64,000 bases of DNA, taken from a candidate division FCPU426 bacterium (GTDB lineage Bacteria > Oederibacteriota > Muellerivitia > Muellerivitales > Muellerivitaceae). The notes under the pieces were generated by a model. That model saw nothing but the letters and a program-made list of their open reading frames with translations, made no database searches and had not been told where the DNA came from. This document shows positions 22,202-59,428 of this stretch, piece after piece. The stretch spans positions 23,649 through 87,648 of the forward strand of contig CAVYSE010000019.1 in the NCBI GenBank assembly GCA_963771075.1, written 5' to 3'. Each line of letters begins with the position of its first letter. Within the stretch, counting starts at the first letter, position 1. Both the position numbers and the translations under genes were made by a program.

Positions 22202-24403
22202 TCAATCGATCTTTTCCAAATTCGCCAGCTTCACAAGCAATTGCTTCTTGCCGTGATTCGGGAAGGACACCGTGACCTTCAAGTCTTCCCCCGAGCCCAT
22301 CAGGGCGATGACCATTCCCCGCCCAAAGGCCTTGTGCTTCACAGTGTCGCCCAGGGCAAAGGGGATGACCGCTTCCTCGTCCCATTCCGGGTCTTTCAAC
22401 TCGTCAAACTCTTTCTTCAGGGTATTGGCCACTTCATATAAACCGCCGTGGGTAGCGACGATATTGGCCGCTTTGCCCGTAACCTGGATCATATCCTTGG
22501 GAATCTCGGAGAGGAACCGGGAGGGTGCCCGCCATTGGGGCGTGCCGTAAACATAACGGCAGGCCGCGCCCGTGAGATAGAGGATGTCCATGGCCCTCGT
22601 CATTCCCACGTAGCACAAGCGTCGCTCTTCCTGAACCTCTTTGTCCTCCTCCATCGAGTTGTTATGGGGAAAGAGCCCTTCTTCCATTCCCGTTATAAAA
22701 ACGATGGGAAATTCCAGACCCTTGGCGTTATGCATGGTCATAAGGGTCACGCAGTTTTTCTTGTCCTCCAGTTTGTCCACGTCAGCCACCAGGGAAACCT
22801 GGTCCAGGTAACCCCCCAGCGTCGGGGTTTCGGCGGTGGATTCGTAATCGACCACCGAGTTAACTAGTTCTTTTAGGTTTTCGGCACGCATTTTCGATTC
22901 AAGTGTGTCATCCGTTGCCAGGTCGGTCAGGTACCCCGAACGCTCCAAAACCTTTCTCACGAATTCGGAAGGTTTGAGCCCGTCCCTTTCGGCGATCAAG
23001 CCATCCATCATGGAAACAAATTGCCCCAAGGCCTGGGAGGCCTTCTTCGGAAACTCACCGTTTGAGGCACAATCCCTCGCGGCTTCCAATAGGGTCATAT
23101 CCCTCGCCTTGGCGATCTCCTCCAACTTGGCCACCGTGCCCGAGCCAATGCCCCGGATGGGCACATTGATCATCCGGCGGAGGGATACGGAATCCTTCGG
23201 ATTCACCAGCACATGCAGGTAGGCCAGCATGTCCTTCACTTCCTTGCGATCGTAGAACTTCAGTCCCCCCACGATGATGTAGGGAATATTGTGGCGCCGG
23301 CAGGCGTCTTCCAAAACCCGGGATTGGGCGTTGGTACGGTATAAAAGGGCGACGTGCCGGAAACTTCGGCCCGGCTGGCCCAACCGCTCGTAGAGGGTTC
23401 GGATCACGAACTCGGCCTCGTCCTTGTCATCCTCCGCCTGGTAATAGATGGGGGATTCCCCCATTTCACGAAGCGAAAAGAGCTCTTTTTCCTTTCGCTG
23501 GGAATTATTGCGGATGACGGCCTGGGCGGCTTGGATGATCGCCTTGGTGGAACGGTAGTTCTGCTGGAGCTTGAAGACCTTGGCGCCAGGGAAATCATGT
23601 TCAAACCGGAGGATATTCCGAATATCCGCCCCCCGCCATCCGTAGATAGACTGGTCCGGGTCCCCGACCACGCAAAGGTTATTCTCAGGGTGGGCGATCA
23701 TGGAGATCATCTGGTATTGGGCTGTGTTGATGTCCTGGTACTCGTCCACGGAGAGGTATTGGAACCTCCGCTGATAGCCCGCCAAAAGTTCCGGATGGTT
23801 TTTCAAGAGGGTCACGGTATTAAACAACAGGTCGTCAAAGTCCATCCCGTTGTTTTGCTTGAGCTTGGTTTGGTAGAGGGGATAGATCTTGGCCACCCGC
23901 TCCATGAACACCCCCGCGGCCATTTCCTGGTACTCTTTAGGATTCTTGAGCTCGTTCTTCGCGGCGCTGATATAGCTGTGCACCGCATAGGGGTGCACCT
24001 GCTTTTCATCCCACTTGAGTTCCCAAAGGCATTCCTTGATGACCGCCTTCTGGTCGGAATCGTCATAGATGGTAAAGTTGGGCTGGTACCCCAGCTTATC
24101 CGCATGGGCTTTCAAGATGCGCAGGCAAAGGGAATGGAAAGTGCCGATGAAAAGATCCCGAGCCTTGGTTCCGCCCGCAAGGACAGAGACGCGGTCCCGC
24201 ATTTCCTGAGCGGCCTTGTTGGTAAAGGTGACCGCCAAAAGGTTAAAAGCTGAAACATTTAATTCATCCAACAGGCGGATCAAACGGTAGGTCACTACCC
24301 GAGTCTTGCCCGAACCCGCGCCAGCCAGGATCAGGGCAGGACCCTGGTGATGTAGGACCGCCTCACGCTGTTCGTCATTCAAATCGAGGTAAGTTTTCTT
24401 CAT
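22202..24403 (-). CDS. pcrA: PcrA/UvrD helicase
   Basis: AGAGSGKT, VDEYQD, QNYRST, EERRLCYVG, C-terminal Tudor-like domain. Confidence 0.92.
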   Translation of the reverse strand: MKKTYLDLNDEQREAVLHHQGPALILAGAGSGKTRVVTYRLIRLLDELNVSAFNLLAVTFTNKAAQEMRDRVSVLAGGTKARDLFIGTFHSLCLRILKAHADKLGYQPNFTIYDDSDQKAVIKECLWELKWDEKQVHPYAVHSYISAAKNELKNPKEYQEMAAGVFMERVAKIYPLYQTKLKQNNGMDFDDLLFNTVTLLKNHPELLAGYQRRFQYLSVDEYQDINTAQYQMISMIAHPENNLCVVGDPDQSIYGWRGADIRNILRFEHDFPGAKVFKLQQNYRSTKAIIQAAQAVIRNNSQRKEKELFSLREMGESPIYYQAEDDKDEAEFVIRTLYERLGQPGRSFRHVALLYRTNAQSRVLEDACRRHNIPYIIVGGLKFYDRKEVKDMLAYLHVLVNPKDSVSLRRMINVPIRGIGSGTVAKLEEIAKARDMTLLEAARDCASNGEFPKKASQALGQFVSMMDGLIAERDGLKPSEFVRKVLERSGYLTDLATDDTLESKMRAENLKELVNSVVDYESTAETPTLGGYLDQVSLVADVDKLEDKKNCVTLMTMHNAKGLEFPIVFITGMEEGLFPHNNSMEEDKEVQEERRLCYVGMTRAMDILYLTGAACRYVYGTPQWRAPSRFLSEIPKDMIQVTGKAANIVATHGGLYEVANTLKKEFDELKDPEWDEEAVIPFALGDTVKHKAFGRGMVIALMGSGEDLKVTVSFPNHGKKQLLVKLANLEKID

Positions 24404-54190: not shown

Positions 54191-54308
54191 ACCGTTCCTC
54201 ATGAGCAGGATAAAGGCTTTCAAAATAAAACTGTTTTACCTTTTCATTATAAGCCGGGGGCTTTGAGACACAAAAGCAGTAAAAGGGGTCAGGCCTGAAA
54301 AAAGAAAA

Positions 54309-54337
54309 TTGACATAAATAAAGAGCACGTTTATTCT
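54309..54337 (+). promoter_or_regulatory. Promoter of RAYT, near-leaderless
   Basis: TTGACA-17-TATTCT, 6 nt before ATG. Confidence 0.6.
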
Positions 54338-54343
54338 CCCTGC

Positions 54344-55279
54344 ATGAGAAAAACAAGGGTTCATTATCAAGGTGGCCTCTATCATGTGATCGCTCGGGGC
54401 AACCAAAGACAAAAGGTATTTCTTGGCAAAGAGGACTATTTAAAATATTTGAAGTTGATGGACGAATATTTAGAACACCACGGTATGGCCGTTTACGCTT
54501 ATTGCCTGATGCCCAACCATATACACATTTTGGTAGAACAAGTCGCTGACGACCCTTTGTCCCGCTATATGCAAAGACTCCAAAGCACCTACACCAGCTA
54601 CTTCAACCGAAAACACAAGAAGGTGGGGCACTTATTCCAGGGCCGGTATAAGGCCATTTTGGTGGACCGGGACGTTTATTTGCTTGAATTGATCCGGTAT
54701 ATTCACTTGAACCCCATTCGGGCGAAGCTAGAGGAAAAGGTGGGTGTTTATCCATGGTCGGGGCATGCTCAGTATTTGGGGACAGACAAGGGAAACACGG
54801 TTCGAATCCAGACGGCTATGGTTTTGCCAATGTTTGGAAAAGAAAATAAAGAGGCCAGAAAGTCCTATCAAAAGTTCGTTTGGGAAGGTATTGCGCAAGG
54901 CCATCGAGAAGATCTTTATGATCTCCGACAAGGGCATCTTCTGGGCGACGAGGACTTTGAAACGCATGTCCATGAAAATGTGCTAAAACAGAAAGTGAAG
55001 CCGAGCTTGAAGTTGAAATTGGAAATAAACCAAATATGGGAAAGGATTAAGAAGAGGGAAAGGCTGGAAGTGGAACCGTCGGGATGGAAAAGAAGCCGAT
55101 GGATCGGCGAAGCGGCTTATTTGGCGGTTGAGGGGCGCGGGAAAAAACAAAAAGAAGTTGCGTTATATTTTGAGGTGGAACCTACAACAATCAATAAAGC
55201 TTTAAAGCAGCTGAGGAAAAGGTGGGAAGAGAAACCGAATGAAGAGAAAGAGTTCATGCGATGGGCCAAGAGCCTATAA
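54344..55279 (+). CDS. REP-associated tyrosine (HUH/Y1) transposase with C-terminal HTH
   Basis: YHVIARGN, LMPNHIH, GHLFQGRY, YIHLNP. Confidence 0.92.
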   Translation: MRKTRVHYQGGLYHVIARGNQRQKVFLGKEDYLKYLKLMDEYLEHHGMAVYAYCLMPNHIHILVEQVADDPLSRYMQRLQSTYTSYFNRKHKKVGHLFQGRYKAILVDRDVYLLELIRYIHLNPIRAKLEEKVGVYPWSGHAQYLGTDKGNTVRIQTAMVLPMFGKENKEARKSYQKFVWEGIAQGHREDLYDLRQGHLLGDEDFETHVHENVLKQKVKPSLKLKLEINQIWERIKKRERLEVEPSGWKRSRWIGEAAYLAVEGRGKKQKEVALYFEVEPTTINKALKQLRKRWEEKPNEEKEFMRWAKSL

Positions 55280-55431
55280 TTTTCTTTTTTCAGGCCTGAT
55301 AACATGAAAAAGGCTGCAGAGCTCCAAGCGTAGAGCGTCTCCACTTAAGTGGGACGAGGCTCTAGGATAAACCCAGAGTCGAAAAGGCACTCACCTTTGC
55401 AGGTGGTGCAAAACGCTTAGGAGGTGCAGCC

Positions 55432-56454
55432 GTGGGACAGTATATCGGAGTAGACCTACACCAGAAAACATCCTACGTCACGAGAGTGAATGAGAAAGGA
55501 AAGGTGCTGGAACAAGTCGATCTGAAGAACGACGCGGATACTTTAAAGGCTTATTTCAAGAAGCAACCCGTGAGTAGCCAGGTCGTAGTAGAAGCCACAG
55601 GTCATTGGTATCACTTTTACGAACTCATCGAGGATCGATTCCCCAACCTGGTATTGGCCCACCCCCAAAAGGTCAAAGCCATAGCCTCGGCCAAGATCAA
55701 GACGGATAAAATTGATTCGGGAATCCTGGCTCAACTTTTGCGGGTGGATCTGCTGCCACGAGCCTATGTGCCACCCCGAGAGATCCGCGACTTACGGGAA
55801 ATCCTTAGGTACCGGGCTTCCCTGGTGCAATTGAGAACACAAGCCAAAAACCGGATGACTTCGGTCATGACCAAGGCGGGAATCGAACCCGTTACTAAAA
55901 ACCGATTCGGAATAAAGAACTTCCGCGAACTTGCCACGGTAGGTACCCGGCCTTGCTACCGTTTGGAACTGGACGGATATATGGAAGTAATCCGGGAACT
56001 AGGCCAAGAGATCGCCAAATCAGAAGAGGTGATCAAGAAAATGGCAGCAGAAAGCCCGGAAGCCCAGCTGATGATGACCATGCCAGGCGTGGGTGCCTTT
56101 TCGGCTTTATTAATTTTGAGCGAGATTGGGGATATTCGCCGGTTCCCGGACGCGGAACATCTATGTTCTTATGGTGGATTGGTCCCCAGTGTTCACGCAT
56201 CAGGGGGAAAAAGCCACAACGGCCACATCACCAAACAGGGTTCTAAATGGATTCGCTGGATATTGGTTGAGAACTCGCTTCATGCCATTCGCAAAACCCG
56301 ACGGTATGGGACCTTATACACGAGGGTGAAGAAGAAGCATGGGAATAACGCGGGACGAATAGCAGTAGCAAGGGCTATGCTGAAAAGCATCTTTCATATG
56401 TTACGAAAGAAGGAAGCTTTTGAGGACTGCCCGGCCAGCTCCGACGGGGTCTGA
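55432..56454 (+). CDS. IS110 DEDD recombinase
   Basis: GVDLH, VEATG, KTDKID, GLVPSVHASGG; RBS AGGAGG. Confidence 0.96.
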   Translation: MGQYIGVDLHQKTSYVTRVNEKGKVLEQVDLKNDADTLKAYFKKQPVSSQVVVEATGHWYHFYELIEDRFPNLVLAHPQKVKAIASAKIKTDKIDSGILAQLLRVDLLPRAYVPPREIRDLREILRYRASLVQLRTQAKNRMTSVMTKAGIEPVTKNRFGIKNFRELATVGTRPCYRLELDGYMEVIRELGQEIAKSEEVIKKMAAESPEAQLMMTMPGVGAFSALLILSEIGDIRRFPDAEHLCSYGGLVPSVHASGGKSHNGHITKQGSKWIRWILVENSLHAIRKTRRYGTLYTRVKKKHGNNAGRIAVARAMLKSIFHMLRKKEAFEDCPASSDGV

Positions 56455-56573
56455 CACAACCCGCAAGAGTTGAGGTCCTTGGCCTGATTGAGCGGCCGGG
56501 TCCAACGTTATCGTGCGGTGAAACAACCGCGAATAGGTGACTGACTTGTAGTCCTTTGAGACTCAGGTTGGAC
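56430..56573 (+). ncRNA. Bridge/seek RNA of the IS110 element
   Basis: Two stem-loops with internal loops matching target (GGGGTC, GGCCTGA) and donor junction (GTTATC, ATAGGTGA). Confidence 0.8.
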
Positions 56574-56620
56574 TTGGGGCCGTGATACTACGCTTTTGCC
56601 TGGACATTCTTTTTCATAGG

Positions 56621-56656
56621 TGACCCCTTTTGCTTTCATGACCCCTTTTGCTTTCA
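56621..56656. repeat. 18-bp tandem duplication at RAYT element right end
   Basis: TGACCCCTTTTGCTTTCA x2. Confidence 0.9.
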
Positions 56657-57045: not shown

Positions 57046-59358
57046 TTAGGCGTTTATCGATATCGGCCGGTACAAAAACTTCTGGAAACCGGTAAAAACA
57101 CGCCTAATTTCTTCCGGGTCCCCCAGGTCGGCAATGGCATCGGCTATCGCATCGTGATATTTGAGTTTCAAAAGCGGGGTCAGTTTGTCCTGGTTTAATT
57201 CTTCAACCCCCACACTAACATAGTGTGAAAGCACGAAATCGAGAAACACCTGCTGTTTGCTGTTGAAGGTATGGTCAATCTCTACCTTGGCGTTTTCGGC
57301 GCGTTCCTCGCGGGTTAAGGGGGCCAGGGCATAGGCCACGTGGGCCAAAACATCAAACAGATCGCTATTCTCCGCGTCGATAATTTTCTGCATCTCGGTA
57401 AGTTGTTCTTTCCCGAAGCCTTTTTCCGCCAAACCTTCCATCAGTCTTTTTCGGGTATCGGGCGCGCTCCAAATCGCGCGCAATTCGGCTTCGTTTTTGA
57501 AGAAATCTGGCAATTTGCCGAATAGCAGTTCCATGAATTGTTGGGCGCTCATGGGTTTGCCGTCCGGGTGCCAAAAGGTCGTGATCGCCATATCTTGAAT
57601 CGTTCGGGCCTTCCCATCAGCCAACTTTATTTTGATTTTCTGACGTTTAAAATCTTCACCTTCTTTTTCCCCGGTTTTAGGGGGGGATTTTGGCGGCACA
57701 GGATAACCAGGTCCAGGTTCTGGCGGGTCCGGTTCGCCATCCCATTCTTTATCTTGAAAGTGATGATGGGCTTTCACAAAGTCGTAAATCGTAAAGTAAT
57801 CCTTATTGTCATATAAACGGGTGCCGCGCCCAATGATCTGCTTGAATTCGATCATCGAATTGATAGGCCGCATCAAGACGATGTTTCGGATGTTTCGTGC
57901 ATCCACTCCCGTCGAGAGCTTTTGGGAAGTGGTCAAGATAGTCGGAATCGTTTTTTCATTATCCTGAAAATCCCTCAAATGCTGTTCACCCAGTTCCCCG
58001 TCATTGGCCGTCACCCTTTGGCAATAGTTCGGGTCAGTGCTAGTCTTGATCTGGTTAATCAGATCCCGAACCGCCAAGGCGTGGTCCTGGGTCGCGCAAA
58101 ACACCAGGGTCTTTTCGTTTTGGTTGATTTCGCCCATGAACTTCCTAACCCGATGGGCCTCACGTTCTTTGATTTCGATGATCCTGTTGAAATCGGGATC
58201 GGTATAAAGGCGGCCTTGTTCAACTTCGCCCTCAATTACTTTATCGTCAGAGGTATAGACATACTCATCAAGGGTTGTGGAAATCTGTCGAACCTTGAAG
58301 GGCGTCAGGAACCCATCATTAATACCCTCTTTGAGTGAATAGACATAAACGGGTTCCCCAAAATATTTATAGGTATCGGCATTCTCTTCCCGTTTGGGTG
58401 TGGCGGTTAAGCCCAACTGAACCGCCGGGGAAAAATAAGTCATAATGTCCCGCCAGTTGCTCTCGTCGTTCGCCCCGCCCCGGTGGCACTCGTCGATCAC
58501 GATAAAGTCAAAGAAGTCGGGCGGATATTCCCCGAAATAGGGTTCGTTATTGGGCCCGCTCATGAAGGTTTGGAAGATCGTGAAGAAGATGCTTCCGTTT
58601 TTGGGCACACGGCCTTTTTTGCGAATTTCATCTGGCTTTATCCGCACCAGGGCGTCCTCAGGGAACGACGAAAAGGCGTTATAGGCCTGGTTCGCCAGAA
58701 TGTTCCGGTCCGCCAGGAAAAGAATTCTTGGCCGGCGGGTCGGGTTGCCGCCCAAGTTCCAACGGCTGTGAAAGAGTTTCCAGGCGATCTGAAAGGCGAT
58801 CATGGTCTTGCCCGTTCCGGTGGCAAGGGTCAAAAGAATCCGTTGTTTCCCATCCGCTATGGCGTCCAAAACCTTTTCAATGGCGTTATCCCTGAAATAC
58901 CTTTCGCCCAGCGTGCCCCCCTTGTCGTCGAAAGGCACTTCGGCGAAACGGTCCCGCCAGGCGTTGGCCTCGGCGAAGGTCATGGCCCATAGTTGTTCGG
59001 GCGTTGGGAAGGCCGAAATTTCACCTTCTTTCCCCTTTTGCATGTCGATCTGGTAAATGCCATGGCCGTTCGCCGAGTAGGTGAACCGAATCCTCATTTT
59101 ACCGGCGTAATTCTTGGCCTGGCCCACCCCCTCGGTTAACAGCTCATCCCAGGCCTTCGCCTCCACCACGGCCAATTTGCGGTTGCGGTAAATGAGGACA
59201 TAGTCGGCCTTGAGCCCGTTGCGGGGGCGGCCCGCGCCTTCGATGCGGCCGGGGGTAATGGGATATTCCCGGAAGATCCGGCTGCCATCCGCCACGCCCC
59301 AGCCCGCCGCCTTCAAGGCGGGGTCGATATGTTCGGCTCTTGTTTCGGCTTCGTTCAT
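57046..59358 (-). CDS. hsdR: Type I restriction subunit R (EcoAI/EcoEI-like)
   Basis: ADY..VEAK, ATGTGKT, DECHR, TATP, QIIGRG. Confidence 0.93.
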   Translation of the reverse strand: MNEAETRAEHIDPALKAAGWGVADGSRIFREYPITPGRIEGAGRPRNGLKADYVLIYRNRKLAVVEAKAWDELLTEGVGQAKNYAGKMRIRFTYSANGHGIYQIDMQKGKEGEISAFPTPEQLWAMTFAEANAWRDRFAEVPFDDKGGTLGERYFRDNAIEKVLDAIADGKQRILLTLATGTGKTMIAFQIAWKLFHSRWNLGGNPTRRPRILFLADRNILANQAYNAFSSFPEDALVRIKPDEIRKKGRVPKNGSIFFTIFQTFMSGPNNEPYFGEYPPDFFDFIVIDECHRGGANDESNWRDIMTYFSPAVQLGLTATPKREENADTYKYFGEPVYVYSLKEGINDGFLTPFKVRQISTTLDEYVYTSDDKVIEGEVEQGRLYTDPDFNRIIEIKEREAHRVRKFMGEINQNEKTLVFCATQDHALAVRDLINQIKTSTDPNYCQRVTANDGELGEQHLRDFQDNEKTIPTILTTSQKLSTGVDARNIRNIVLMRPINSMIEFKQIIGRGTRLYDNKDYFTIYDFVKAHHHFQDKEWDGEPDPPEPGPGYPVPPKSPPKTGEKEGEDFKRQKIKIKLADGKARTIQDMAITTFWHPDGKPMSAQQFMELLFGKLPDFFKNEAELRAIWSAPDTRKRLMEGLAEKGFGKEQLTEMQKIIDAENSDLFDVLAHVAYALAPLTREERAENAKVEIDHTFNSKQQVFLDFVLSHYVSVGVEELNQDKLTPLLKLKYHDAIADAIADLGDPEEIRRVFTGFQKFLYRPISINA

Positions 59359-59428
59359 TGCGTTTAACTCTTCCGTTCGTTCAGTTTGAAATGTCGACAA
59401 TTTGTCGACGGTTCATAAATGGTTTTAT

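Follow-up and report, generated by a model that had tools for sequence, protein, structure and literature searches.

The window analysed in this study is a stretch of 64,000 nucleotides (nt) from a candidate division FCPU426 bacterium and corresponds to positions 23649–87648 of contig C19 (CAVYSE010000019.1) in a 28-contig assembly, called G000 (GCA_963771075.1). A gene for a RAYT-like Y1 transposase lies on its forward strand, and the terminal repeat to the right of this gene is interrupted by a 1,324-bp insertion sequence (IS) of the IS1111 type, which encodes a recombinase of the IS110 family. The 3′ end of this IS very probably also encodes a bridge or seek RNA of ~135–145 nt, with guides predicted to pair with each strand of the target and of the joined element ends. 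The decisive evidence for these guides is covariation across the family together with compensatory base pairs. An earlier note, made by reading the sequence of this DNA, had proposed an element of this kind, and its claims are taken up below where the results bear on them.

The search for protein relatives of the recombinase returned 4401 sequences at E ≤ 0.001, the nearest of which were 97, 85 and 84% identical. The DNA of 160 related loci was collected, comprising 80 metagenome loci and 80 loci on genome contigs; the genome-contig relatives were recovered with an alignment as the query, and a single-protein query gave none. The 3′ ends of 32 elements formed the seed alignment. The covariance model of the RNA core (R1) comprises 135 positions and 22 pairs, and loci outside this model were used as the independent set. 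The stretch or part of it was found in 20 sequencing runs, including one RNA run with 6% of the sampled words. Runs X1, X3, X11 and X20 were compared as assembled contigs and not as raw reads, a form in which RNA ends, strand and level are unreadable.

Element boundaries, copies and recombinase

Seven full copies of the IS were found in G000, on seven contigs and in seven distinct unique contexts, along with fragments. The full copies are 99.85–100% identical, differ in their flanks, and all have intact reading frames. When their flanks were aligned, every copy was bracketed by TG(A), and the insertion site followed a pattern resembling xxCC-TG-ACCCC. The four bases before the TG are GGCC in 3/7 copies, GACC in 3/7 and AGCC in 1/7, and the bases after it are ACCCC in 5/7, ACTCC in 1/7 and ATTGA in 1/7. 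Only TG(A) is common to both junctions in all seven copies, and the sites are alike, which indicates that no target duplication extends past this short core. The seven copies with different flanks, together with an unoccupied twin of the target (tcaGGCCTGACCCCtttt, reverse strand, 54285–54295), place the element ends exactly where the earlier note had put them. This note had also named copies at unrelated sites as evidence that would speak against its proposal. The seven full copies and two partial ones instead lie at like junctions, and because they share TG-flanked sites of the xxCC-TG-ACCCC type, their placement does not refute it.

The subterminal inverted repeats ATGAAAAAG and CTTTTTCAT are 9 bp long, within the 7–17 bp that characterize IS1111 elements, and lie 5 and 3 nt inward of the left and right ends. 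The junctions of the relatives are highly regular, with flank-TG-A-Tnnn-ATGAAAA on the left and TTTTCAT-AGG-TG-flank on the right. An IS protein search was positive in 5/41 genomes at E ≤ 1e-30, including G000, and the IS was not found in the three same-genus genomes searched with its protein. In metagenome contigs, IS ends were joined to further, different flanks, and one contig carried an IS-free version of the window site. No circle junction and no clean empty-site joint was found among the contigs of runs X1, X3, X11 and X20.

Some copies are arranged irregularly. The copy followed by ATTGA (C28:109620–111083) lies inside another copy of the IS, the outer flanks of which form a normal Y1-end target. 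Downstream of the full copy come TG, the last 133 nt of the other copy (from ATTGAGC) and then TG-ACCCC. The insertion point is the DNA encoding the left-target guide of the IS (GGCC-TG-ATTGAGC); this copy landed in, or recombined at, its own left-target guide DNA. At C18:281537–283127, two partial copies, one of them ~94% identical, are arranged head to head and joined inside the transposase gene. Both have the same Y1-end left junction, GACC-TG, and the pair represents either a palindromic rearrangement or an assembly artefact. Of note, the 150 nt to the left of the C11 copy (C11:540936–541085) are 100% identical to C3:4428–4576, which ends in GGCC-TG-GCCCC. This identity ends exactly at the TG, with unrelated sequences to the right, a pattern that points to either a rearrangement involving the IS or a duplicated segment with the crossover site as its boundary.

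The recombinase was matched by the Pfam models PF01548 (81.5 bits, cut-off 29) and PF02371 (85.2 bits, cut-off 21.3), and by the NCBIfam model NF033542, "IS110 family RNA-guided transposase" (237.9 bits, cut-off 140). Residues D8, E54, D92, D95 and S257 are invariant among 35 homologues and align with the YIGID, IEATG, KTDxxD and ESG motifs of IS621 (8wt6); their catalytic roles are those given by Hiraizumi et al. (2024; PMC11208158). The model matches and this conserved D/E/D/D/S set, which is that of the IS110-family DEDD recombinases, bear out the earlier description of the recombinase as intact. Its best plasmid-borne relative is 40.7% identical. The stop codon of the gene is at 56452–56454, and the gene is bordered by fairly long non-coding ends of 132 nt (5′) and 166 nt (3′), with the RNA scaffold in the 3′ end. 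The element thus combines the defining features of the IS110 family with the architecture of the IS1111 group, i.e., the subterminal repeat, the predicted 3′ RNA, the guide order and the GL-P----SG motif.

Predicted guides, RNA-type scaffold and crossover core

The 3′ region contains four predicted guides, two for the target and two for the joined element ends (the donor). GGCCTGA, which has the sense of the top strand, is preceded on its 5′ side by GGGGTC, the guide complementary to that strand, in agreement with the IS1111 rule. The earlier note had described two stem-loops that display GGGGTC, GGCCTGA, GTTATC and ATAGGTGA (56533–56540), and all of its coordinates for the stems and guides are correct in the sequence; one nucleotide, G56500, was counted in both stems.

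We investigated whether the guides change together with the flanks and ends that they would recognize, as the earlier note had suggested. In the seed, the right-target guide matched its own flank at 6.48 of 7 positions vs 5.58 for permuted flanks (23 pairs, 11 sites), and the left-target guide matched at 6.12 of 7 vs 4.34 (25 pairs, 17 sites); neither value was reached in 5000 permutations. The right-donor guide covaried more weakly, with 4.68 of 7 vs 3.96 (19 pairs, 11 sites; 0/5000 permutations). The left-donor guide varies little (7.33 of 8 vs 7.04; 45/5000 permutations), and in the independent loci all four right-end variants, CATAGG, CATACG, CATAGA and CATAAG, are mirrored in it. The independent loci gave the same picture for the target guides (0/5000 permutations for both). 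The right-target guide matched at 5.62 positions vs 4.07 permuted (n = 16), with at least 6/7 matches in 11 pairs; of the five pairs below this value, three come from elements whose right end is disrupted or replaced. The left-target guide matched at 6.28 positions vs 4.13 permuted (n = 18), with at least 6/7 matches in 14 pairs.

Examples of right-target guides and their flanks are GGAGCCA/TGGCTCC, GGGGACA/TGTCCCC, AGGGACA/TGTCCCT and TTGTTTC/GAAACAA. In the independent set, wholly different targets such as GATGC-TG-AAACAAGT, ACATT-TG-GAACG, GGGGG-TG-GGATCAT and ACGATT-TG-CCTAA are mirrored in the guides. Because so many distinct and unrelated target sequences are mirrored, a chance match is untenable. 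Among the transition mismatches, 14 are wobble-compatible for a guide on the plus strand vs 4 that are not, as expected for pairing by a plus-strand transcript.

The region also forms a conserved RNA-type scaffold with compensatory base pairs. RNAalifold predicted 21 pairs for the 32-sequence alignment, 14 of them with compensatory changes. Stem 1 was paired in 98.3% of cells over its 10 counted pairs, eight of which changed on both sides. In the named structure, 91–96% of cells were paired vs 80–85% in shuffles, and none of 500 column shuffles reached the observed value; when partner columns were slid by 1–3 positions, pairing fell to 26–50%. The stretch 56428–56575 of the window folded at −60.7 kcal/mol (z = −3.2), with 1/200 shuffles as good, and the fold of the longer stretch 56425–56623 was unremarkable (z = −0.9). 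The window element scored 110.8 bits with R1. On the plus strand just downstream of the gene, R1 matched 62/80 metagenome loci and 28/80 genome-contig loci (90/160 in total, 31 of which belong to the seed). The R1 search of G000 returned the seven copies and one partial 3′ fragment beside the full C28 copy, and no solo RNA genes. The predicted RNA starts within the gene, whose last codons contain both the right-target guide and the 5′ strand of stem 1; the same arrangement is found in close relatives.

The size proposed in the earlier note, ~145 nt, agrees with the ~135–145 nt predicted here, but "compact" is not a distinctive description, as published short seekRNAs measure 82–96 nt (Siddiquee et al. 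2024, PMC11187229). The helix proposed to close the second loop (GTCCAAC, 56500–56506, with GTTGGAC, 56567–56573) is perfect in the window and in the two closest relatives, but is only partly conserved. For 56501–56506 with 56567–56572, the first four pairs were paired in 81% and the last two in 51% over the 32 sequences. An alternative 3-bp helix (56500–56502 with 56543–56545) was paired in 97.9% of cells, including seven GC-to-AU cells. In searches for loop 2 helices in each sequence against shuffled partners, the short helices were mostly non-significant.

The core shared by both junctions is TG, and not TGA as the earlier note had it, because the next base differs between the left and right junctions in 12 relatives. 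At the left junction this base is A in 33/33 relatives, and at the right junction of the 12 it is G, T or C. The A after the TG is therefore part of the left IS end and the right-hand base is part of the target; in the window element, the right target (ACCCC) and the left IS end (ATAAC) happen to share this A as their first base. In the left-donor guide, the base after the TG equals the first base of the right flank in 31/32 seed and 14/18 independent loci. The left-target guide continues as TG-ATT, and the AT of this extension equals the two bases with which the left IS end invariably starts. Handshake guides, as defined for IS621, are bases adjacent to a guide; once strands have been exchanged, they pair with the non-cognate DNA (Hiraizumi et al. 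2024, PMC11208158). In the 3′ guides of the window RNA, the base or bases that follow TG match the other substrate, which by sequence likens them to these handshake guides. Read along the RNA, the arrangement is as in IS621 (5′ guide, hairpin, 3′ guide with core and handshake bases); relative to the gene it appears as a mirror image, consistent with the reversed order that IS1111 seekRNAs are reported to have (Siddiquee et al. 2024, PMC11187229). Two variants of the core were observed. A contig of run X11, from a related population, continues from window position 55296 with GGCC and then CGACCCCTTTTACC, an IS-free Y1 end with the core CG in place of TG, and locus L062 has CG at its left junction. 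Such CG cores might reflect escape or imperfect targeting.

A promoter is predicted at the junction of the circularized element. The hexamer TTGACA is found exactly 14 nt from the right end in 25/33 relatives, and four more, including the window element with TGGACA, match it at five of six positions. In a circle, this −35-like hexamer would be followed by a 17-nt spacer and TnnnAT (TAACAT in the window, 55300–55305), and the TG core would occupy the extended −10 position. Circles of the IS110 family are known to form hybrid promoters at their junctions (Pares-Guillen et al. 2025, PMC12288879). One metatranscriptome run contained a 151-nt contig on 56412–56562 (depth 3, 3 differences) and a 378-nt contig on 55292–55649 (15 differences), a weak hint that a close variant of the element is transcribed.

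Table 1. Features of the IS1111-type element, its predicted RNA and the interrupted Y1 element (window positions)
Feature	Position	Strand	Remarks
IS110-family (IS1111-type) insertion sequence	55299–56622	+	1,324 bp including one TG core; TG on both sides (55297–55298, 56621–56622)
Transposase/recombinase gene, 340 aa, GTG start	55432–56454	+	Pfam, NCBIfam, IS621 (8wt6) alignment
Left target half CAGGCC + core TG	55291–55298	+	Left flanks of 7 copies
Core TG + right target half ACCCC	56621–56627	+	Right flanks of 7 copies
Left subterminal inverted repeat ATGAAAAAG	55304–55312	+	Complementary to 56609–56617; ATGAAAA kept in relatives
Right subterminal inverted repeat CTTTTTCAT	56609–56617	+	Family consensus ~13 bp (CAGCCTTTTTCAT)
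Predicted bridge/seek RNA, conserved core (R1)	56431–56564	+	Compensatory pairs; 56430 to 56573 with the outer helix of the earlier note
Stem 1, 5′ strand, closes target-binding loop	56430–56441	+	Within coding sequence; pairs with 56490–56500
Right-target guide GGGGTC	56446–56451	+	Complementary to top strand G-ACCCC; last two transposase codons; covaries with right flank
Left-target guide GGCC + core TG, then ATT (handshake-like)	56481–56489	+	AT matches left IS end; covaries with left flank
Stem 1, 3′ strand	56490–56500	+	Pairing across the alignment
Right-donor guide GTTATC	56507–56512	+	Complementary to G-ATAAC of left IS end; weaker covariation
Inner hairpin of donor-binding loop	56514–56531	+	Five pairs, 98.8% paired; 4 compensatory
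Left-donor guide ATAGG + core TG, then AC (handshake-like)	56533–56541	+	AC matches right target; end variants mirrored
Third conserved hairpin (AGTC...GACT)	56550–56563	+	99.2% paired
−35-like hexamer TGGACA	56601–56606	+	14 nt from right end; predicted promoter with TAACAT (55300–55305) only after circularization
Y1 (HUH) transposase gene, RAYT-like, 311 aa	54344–55279	+	Right terminal repeat is the insertion site
Y1 element, left terminal inverted repeat	54278–54310	−	Unoccupied target copy GGCCTGACCCC at 54295–54285
Tandem duplication, 2 × 18 bp (TGACCCCTTTTGCTTTCA)	56621–56656	+	Starts at TG core

Y1 elements and their terminal repeats

The protein encoded next to the IS was matched by PF01797 (Y1_Tnp) with 63.1 bits, and its HUH motif (HIH) is visible in the translation. 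It scored 76 bits with the model REP_Tyr_transpos (NF047646), below the cut-off of 80, but fared far worse with the IS200 model (22.1 bits, cut-off 55). The tblastn search with this protein in G000 gave 20 matches, 15 of them spanning at least 180 residues, which fall into about four subfamilies. Proteins of this family are ~311–313 aa long. Their N-terminal half is RAYT-like, and the C-terminal half, which gave just sub-threshold hints of a helix-turn-helix, may resemble the C-terminal domain of DnaA.

Each subfamily is bounded by its own inverted repeat of ~33 nt, and the motif TGACCCC is common to all of them. The Y1 gene of the window is flanked by a perfect 22-nt inverted repeat (54289–54310 and 55278–55299), which across the IS extends to ~33 nt with one mismatch; a second subfamily has GATAATATAAAATGAAGACCTGACCCC..TGTTC on both sides. 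A contig of the DNA run X1 carries the Y1 end of the window without the IS and runs into sequence resembling the right flank. The earlier note had identified the target as the terminal repeat of a RAYT. It is indeed the terminal inverted repeat of a RAYT-like Y1 gene, but the protein scores below the RAYT cut-off and the gene is multi-copy and thus not a canonical RAYT, which is typically present in one copy per genome (Bertels et al. 2017). "Terminal inverted repeat of a RAYT-like Y1 transposon" is therefore the better wording, given the RAYT-like sequence of the owner and its many copies.

The further claim that the IS occupies the end of another mobile element holds for the window, where the target lies in the Y1 terminal inverted repeat, and for relatives in two other assemblies. 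At locus L121 (51% protein identity), the element interrupts a 3′ Y1 repeat, TTCAAGTTTCAAGACT-TG, and the 5′ repeat of the same Y1 gene is intact. Locus L050 (53%) lies in the 5′ repeat of a truncated Y1 gene, beside a complete unoccupied Y1 element. The flank caaGACC-TG-ACCCC is common to many relatives. In G000, Y1-end repeats hold four of the seven full copies (contigs C19, C26, C3 and C28) and both partial ones. Unoccupied sites of the form G[GA]CCTGACCCC number 24 in this genome, and 14 of them lie in the end repeats of the window Y1 type and of the second subfamily. One further unoccupied site coincides with the end of a third Y1 gene type and includes its stop codon. By simple arithmetic, chance would account for ~4 such sites at this genome size.

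A solo remnant consisting of the last ~40 nt of the right IS end was observed on contig C6 (2700–2840), where it adjoins a Y1 gene with the duplicated end AATGATGAC-TG-ACCCC. The left-target guide of an 88% identical relative (locus L047) is ATGAC and would fit the third Y1 end type on C6 (ATGAC-TG-ACCCC).

Tandem duplications of 11–20 bp, with the unit TGACCCC... starting exactly at the TG, were observed at Y1 ends both with and without the IS. In addition to the one downstream of the window element, a duplication is present with the IS in the right flank of the C26 copy, and duplications without the IS are found at C26:77297, C11:544976 and L121:281–303. The right flank of locus L110 is likewise duplicated, and the phase is unambiguous at two duplication sites. 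Slippage was rejected as the origin of these duplications, since the sequence past the second unit does not repeat the unit start and there is no microhomology. Staggered nicks, by analogy with IS621, were rejected as well, since no nick falls at the start of the duplication.

Proposed mechanism, competing readings and related elements

A mechanism can be proposed by homology with IS621, ISEc11, ISPa11 and ISKpn4. The element would excise as a circle that joins its ends as CATAGG-TG-ATAAC, and this junction would create the promoter TGGACA/17-nt spacer/TAACAT. The RNA, produced from the transposase transcript or from its own promoter, would bind the recombinase. In the target loop, the 3′ guide would hold GGCC-TG of the bottom strand and the 5′ guide G-ACCCC of the top strand, and the donor loop would hold ATAGG-TG and G-ATAAC likewise. 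Strand exchange would occur at the TG dinucleotide, and the one to three bases after the TG of each 3′ guide, which match the other substrate, may stabilize the exchanged strands in a handshake-like manner.

Several observations weigh against this RNA-guided reading. On its own, the window sequence is suggestive and not decisive, because 2000 mononucleotide shuffles of 56425–56600 produced both target matches in 78 cases and both donor matches in 5. The seed and independent loci are kin, so the permutation counts given above overstate independence. The right-donor guide is imperfect in most relatives, with 4–6/7 matching positions, and closure of the donor loop is ambiguous between the helix of the earlier note and the 3-bp alternative. 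No Rfam 15 family matched the RNA region at a permissive E-value, where five weak, unrelated matches stayed below their gathering scores. No sigma-70-like promoter was found within the linear element, and the metatranscriptome contigs could stem from DNA carry-over. The IS1111 label rests on architecture, because tblastn identity is just ~22% to ISKpn4 and 24% to IS4321 and IS5075, no higher than to other IS110-family entries. Given that the RNA is a prediction from sequence, the matches could in principle act as DNA, either as recombinase-binding repeats or as single-stranded DNA guides like those of IS200/IS605, with no RNA guide. The left-donor guide does repeat right-end sequence, as subterminal protein-binding sites would, and compensatory pairs and G-T wobble fit a DNA hairpin too. 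We consider this very unlikely: protein-binding sites would not covary with target flanks outside the element, guide order and strandedness follow the IS1111 seekRNA pattern, and studies of this family report an RNA from this region that is purified along with the transposase, is essential and can be reprogrammed (Siddiquee et al. 2024, PMC11187229; Durrant et al. 2024, PMC11208160; IS621 structures). It is also very unlikely that the copies are inert relics or assembly duplicates that are not currently mobile. The division of the assembly into 28 contigs, the odd head-to-head pair on C18 as a possible artefact and the hexamer TGGACA in place of TTGACA would fit such copies. Against them stand the near-identity of seven intact copies in unique contexts, the failure to find the IS in the three same-genus genomes searched, the metagenome contigs with other flanks or an IS-free window site, and the match of all guides to the occupied sites.

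A different question is whether the RNA-guided element is specialized on mobile elements at all. It may recognize its 11-nt motif (GRCC-TG-ACCCC) anywhere, with the Y1 repeats being incidental. Three of the seven full copies (C21, C18 and C11) lie at motif-like sites outside recognizable Y1 repeats, which counts against specialization, and two of these sites are imperfect (AGCC, ACTCC); 9 or 10 of the 24 unoccupied motif copies are in unrelated, mostly coding contexts. We nevertheless regard incidental use of the repeats as rather unlikely. Y1 ends hold 14 of the 24 unoccupied motifs and the stop-codon site of the third gene type, with ~4 motif copies expected by chance in the genome, and Y1-end repeats hold the majority of full copies and both partials. 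Moreover, relatives at 51–53% protein identity enter the same nucleotide of Y1 repeats, many others share the caaGACC-TG-ACCCC flank, and the ATGAC guide of the 88% identical relative fits the third Y1 end type at C6, beside an IS end remnant. A Y1 gene was present within the fetched DNA of just 3/160 related loci, but this scarcity neither supports nor refutes the link, because most fetched contigs are short. If specialization is real, a broader scenario can be offered tentatively, which we think possible but doubtful. An IS1111-type clade spread over several phyla (Nitrospirota, Methylomirabilota, Armatimonadota and others) would be a hyperparasite of multi-copy RAYT-like Y1 transposons with a helix-turn-helix tail. 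It would always enter the same TG of a ..GACC-TG-ACCCC.. repeat, its left-target guide would track the ends of Y1 subfamilies (GGCC, GACC, TGAC, GACT), and the 11–20 bp duplications that start at the TG would be cleavage scars, left by the Y1 enzyme or by abortive bridge recombination.

Among known systems, the element is most readily compared with ISEc11, ISPa11, ISKpn4 and ISPst6, which use seekRNAs (Siddiquee et al. 2024, PMC11187229). Like these IS1111 elements, it has a DEDD transposase in the range of 330–350 aa with GL-P----SG (GLVPSVHASG in the window), subterminal inverted repeats, an RNA downstream of the gene and a specific short target. The guide complementary to the top strand is likewise 5′ of that complementary to the bottom strand, with an overlap at the crossover site, and ISPa11 also lands in a genomic repeat (REP). 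The differences are a tblastn identity of ~22% to ISKpn4, the one of the four found in the plasmid search, and a predicted RNA that, unlike those described for seekRNA elements, begins inside the coding sequence, with the last two codons as right-target guide. The target also differs, since the insertion lies in a Y1 terminal repeat, and the host is an uncultured bacterium of soil or bog; the element is known here from its sequence alone.

With IS621 (Durrant et al. 2024, PMC11208160; PDB 8wt6), the element shares a two-loop RNA in which each loop has two guides for both strands, and a dinucleotide core, which is CT in IS621 and TG here. Handshake-type bases (Hiraizumi et al. 2024, PMC11208158), catalytic D, E, D, D and S residues and a predicted circle-junction promoter are further common features. 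In contrast to the window element, IS621 belongs to the IS110 group, and its RNA is encoded 5′ of the gene, in the left end, with strand roles that are mirrored relative to the gene. The two recombinases are only weakly similar (E = 1.8e-9, two partial stretches). ISPpu9 and ISPpu10 of Pseudomonas putida are also multi-copy IS110-family elements in repeated extragenic sequences, with a small RNA gene downstream of the transposase, and a hybrid promoter arises in the circles of ISPpu10 (Pares-Guillen et al. 2025, PMC12288879). The ISPpu9 RNA, Ssr9, is dispensable for transposition and also occurs as solo copies (PMC12288879), whereas R1 found no solo RNA for the window element. IS1111-family elements that insert at one fixed position of a Tn3-family terminal repeat (24% protein identity) are alike in habit, but the host transposon is of the DDE type there and of the Y1/HUH type here. 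REPs and the terminal repeats of unrelated transposons are known landing sites of IS1111-family elements, as reportedly described by Partridge and Hall in 2003 and by Tobes and Pareja in 2006.

The element is thus a clear new example of an RNA-guided mechanism described in 2024 rather than a new mechanism, and, as the mechanism is already known, its value is that of a natural data set. One scaffold of ~135 nt is combined in the fetched loci with many natural guide sets, comprising at least a dozen left and right targets and four donor-end variants. These sets show wobble-tolerant positions, the place of the TG core and handshake-type positions in the IS1111 layout too. The near-invariant TTGACA and the TG in the extended −10 position suggest how an IS1111-type element may couple its expression to circularization. 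Use of the terminal repeat of one mobile element as the landing pad of another may reduce damage to the host. The overlap of a guide with the last two codons would impose a small constraint on retargeting, and the sections of the cited IS110 and IS1111 papers used here hold no such description. Just downstream of the element, the window encodes a 784-aa open reading frame on the reverse strand (57046–59400), which by eye resembles the helicase/restriction (R) subunit of a type I restriction system.

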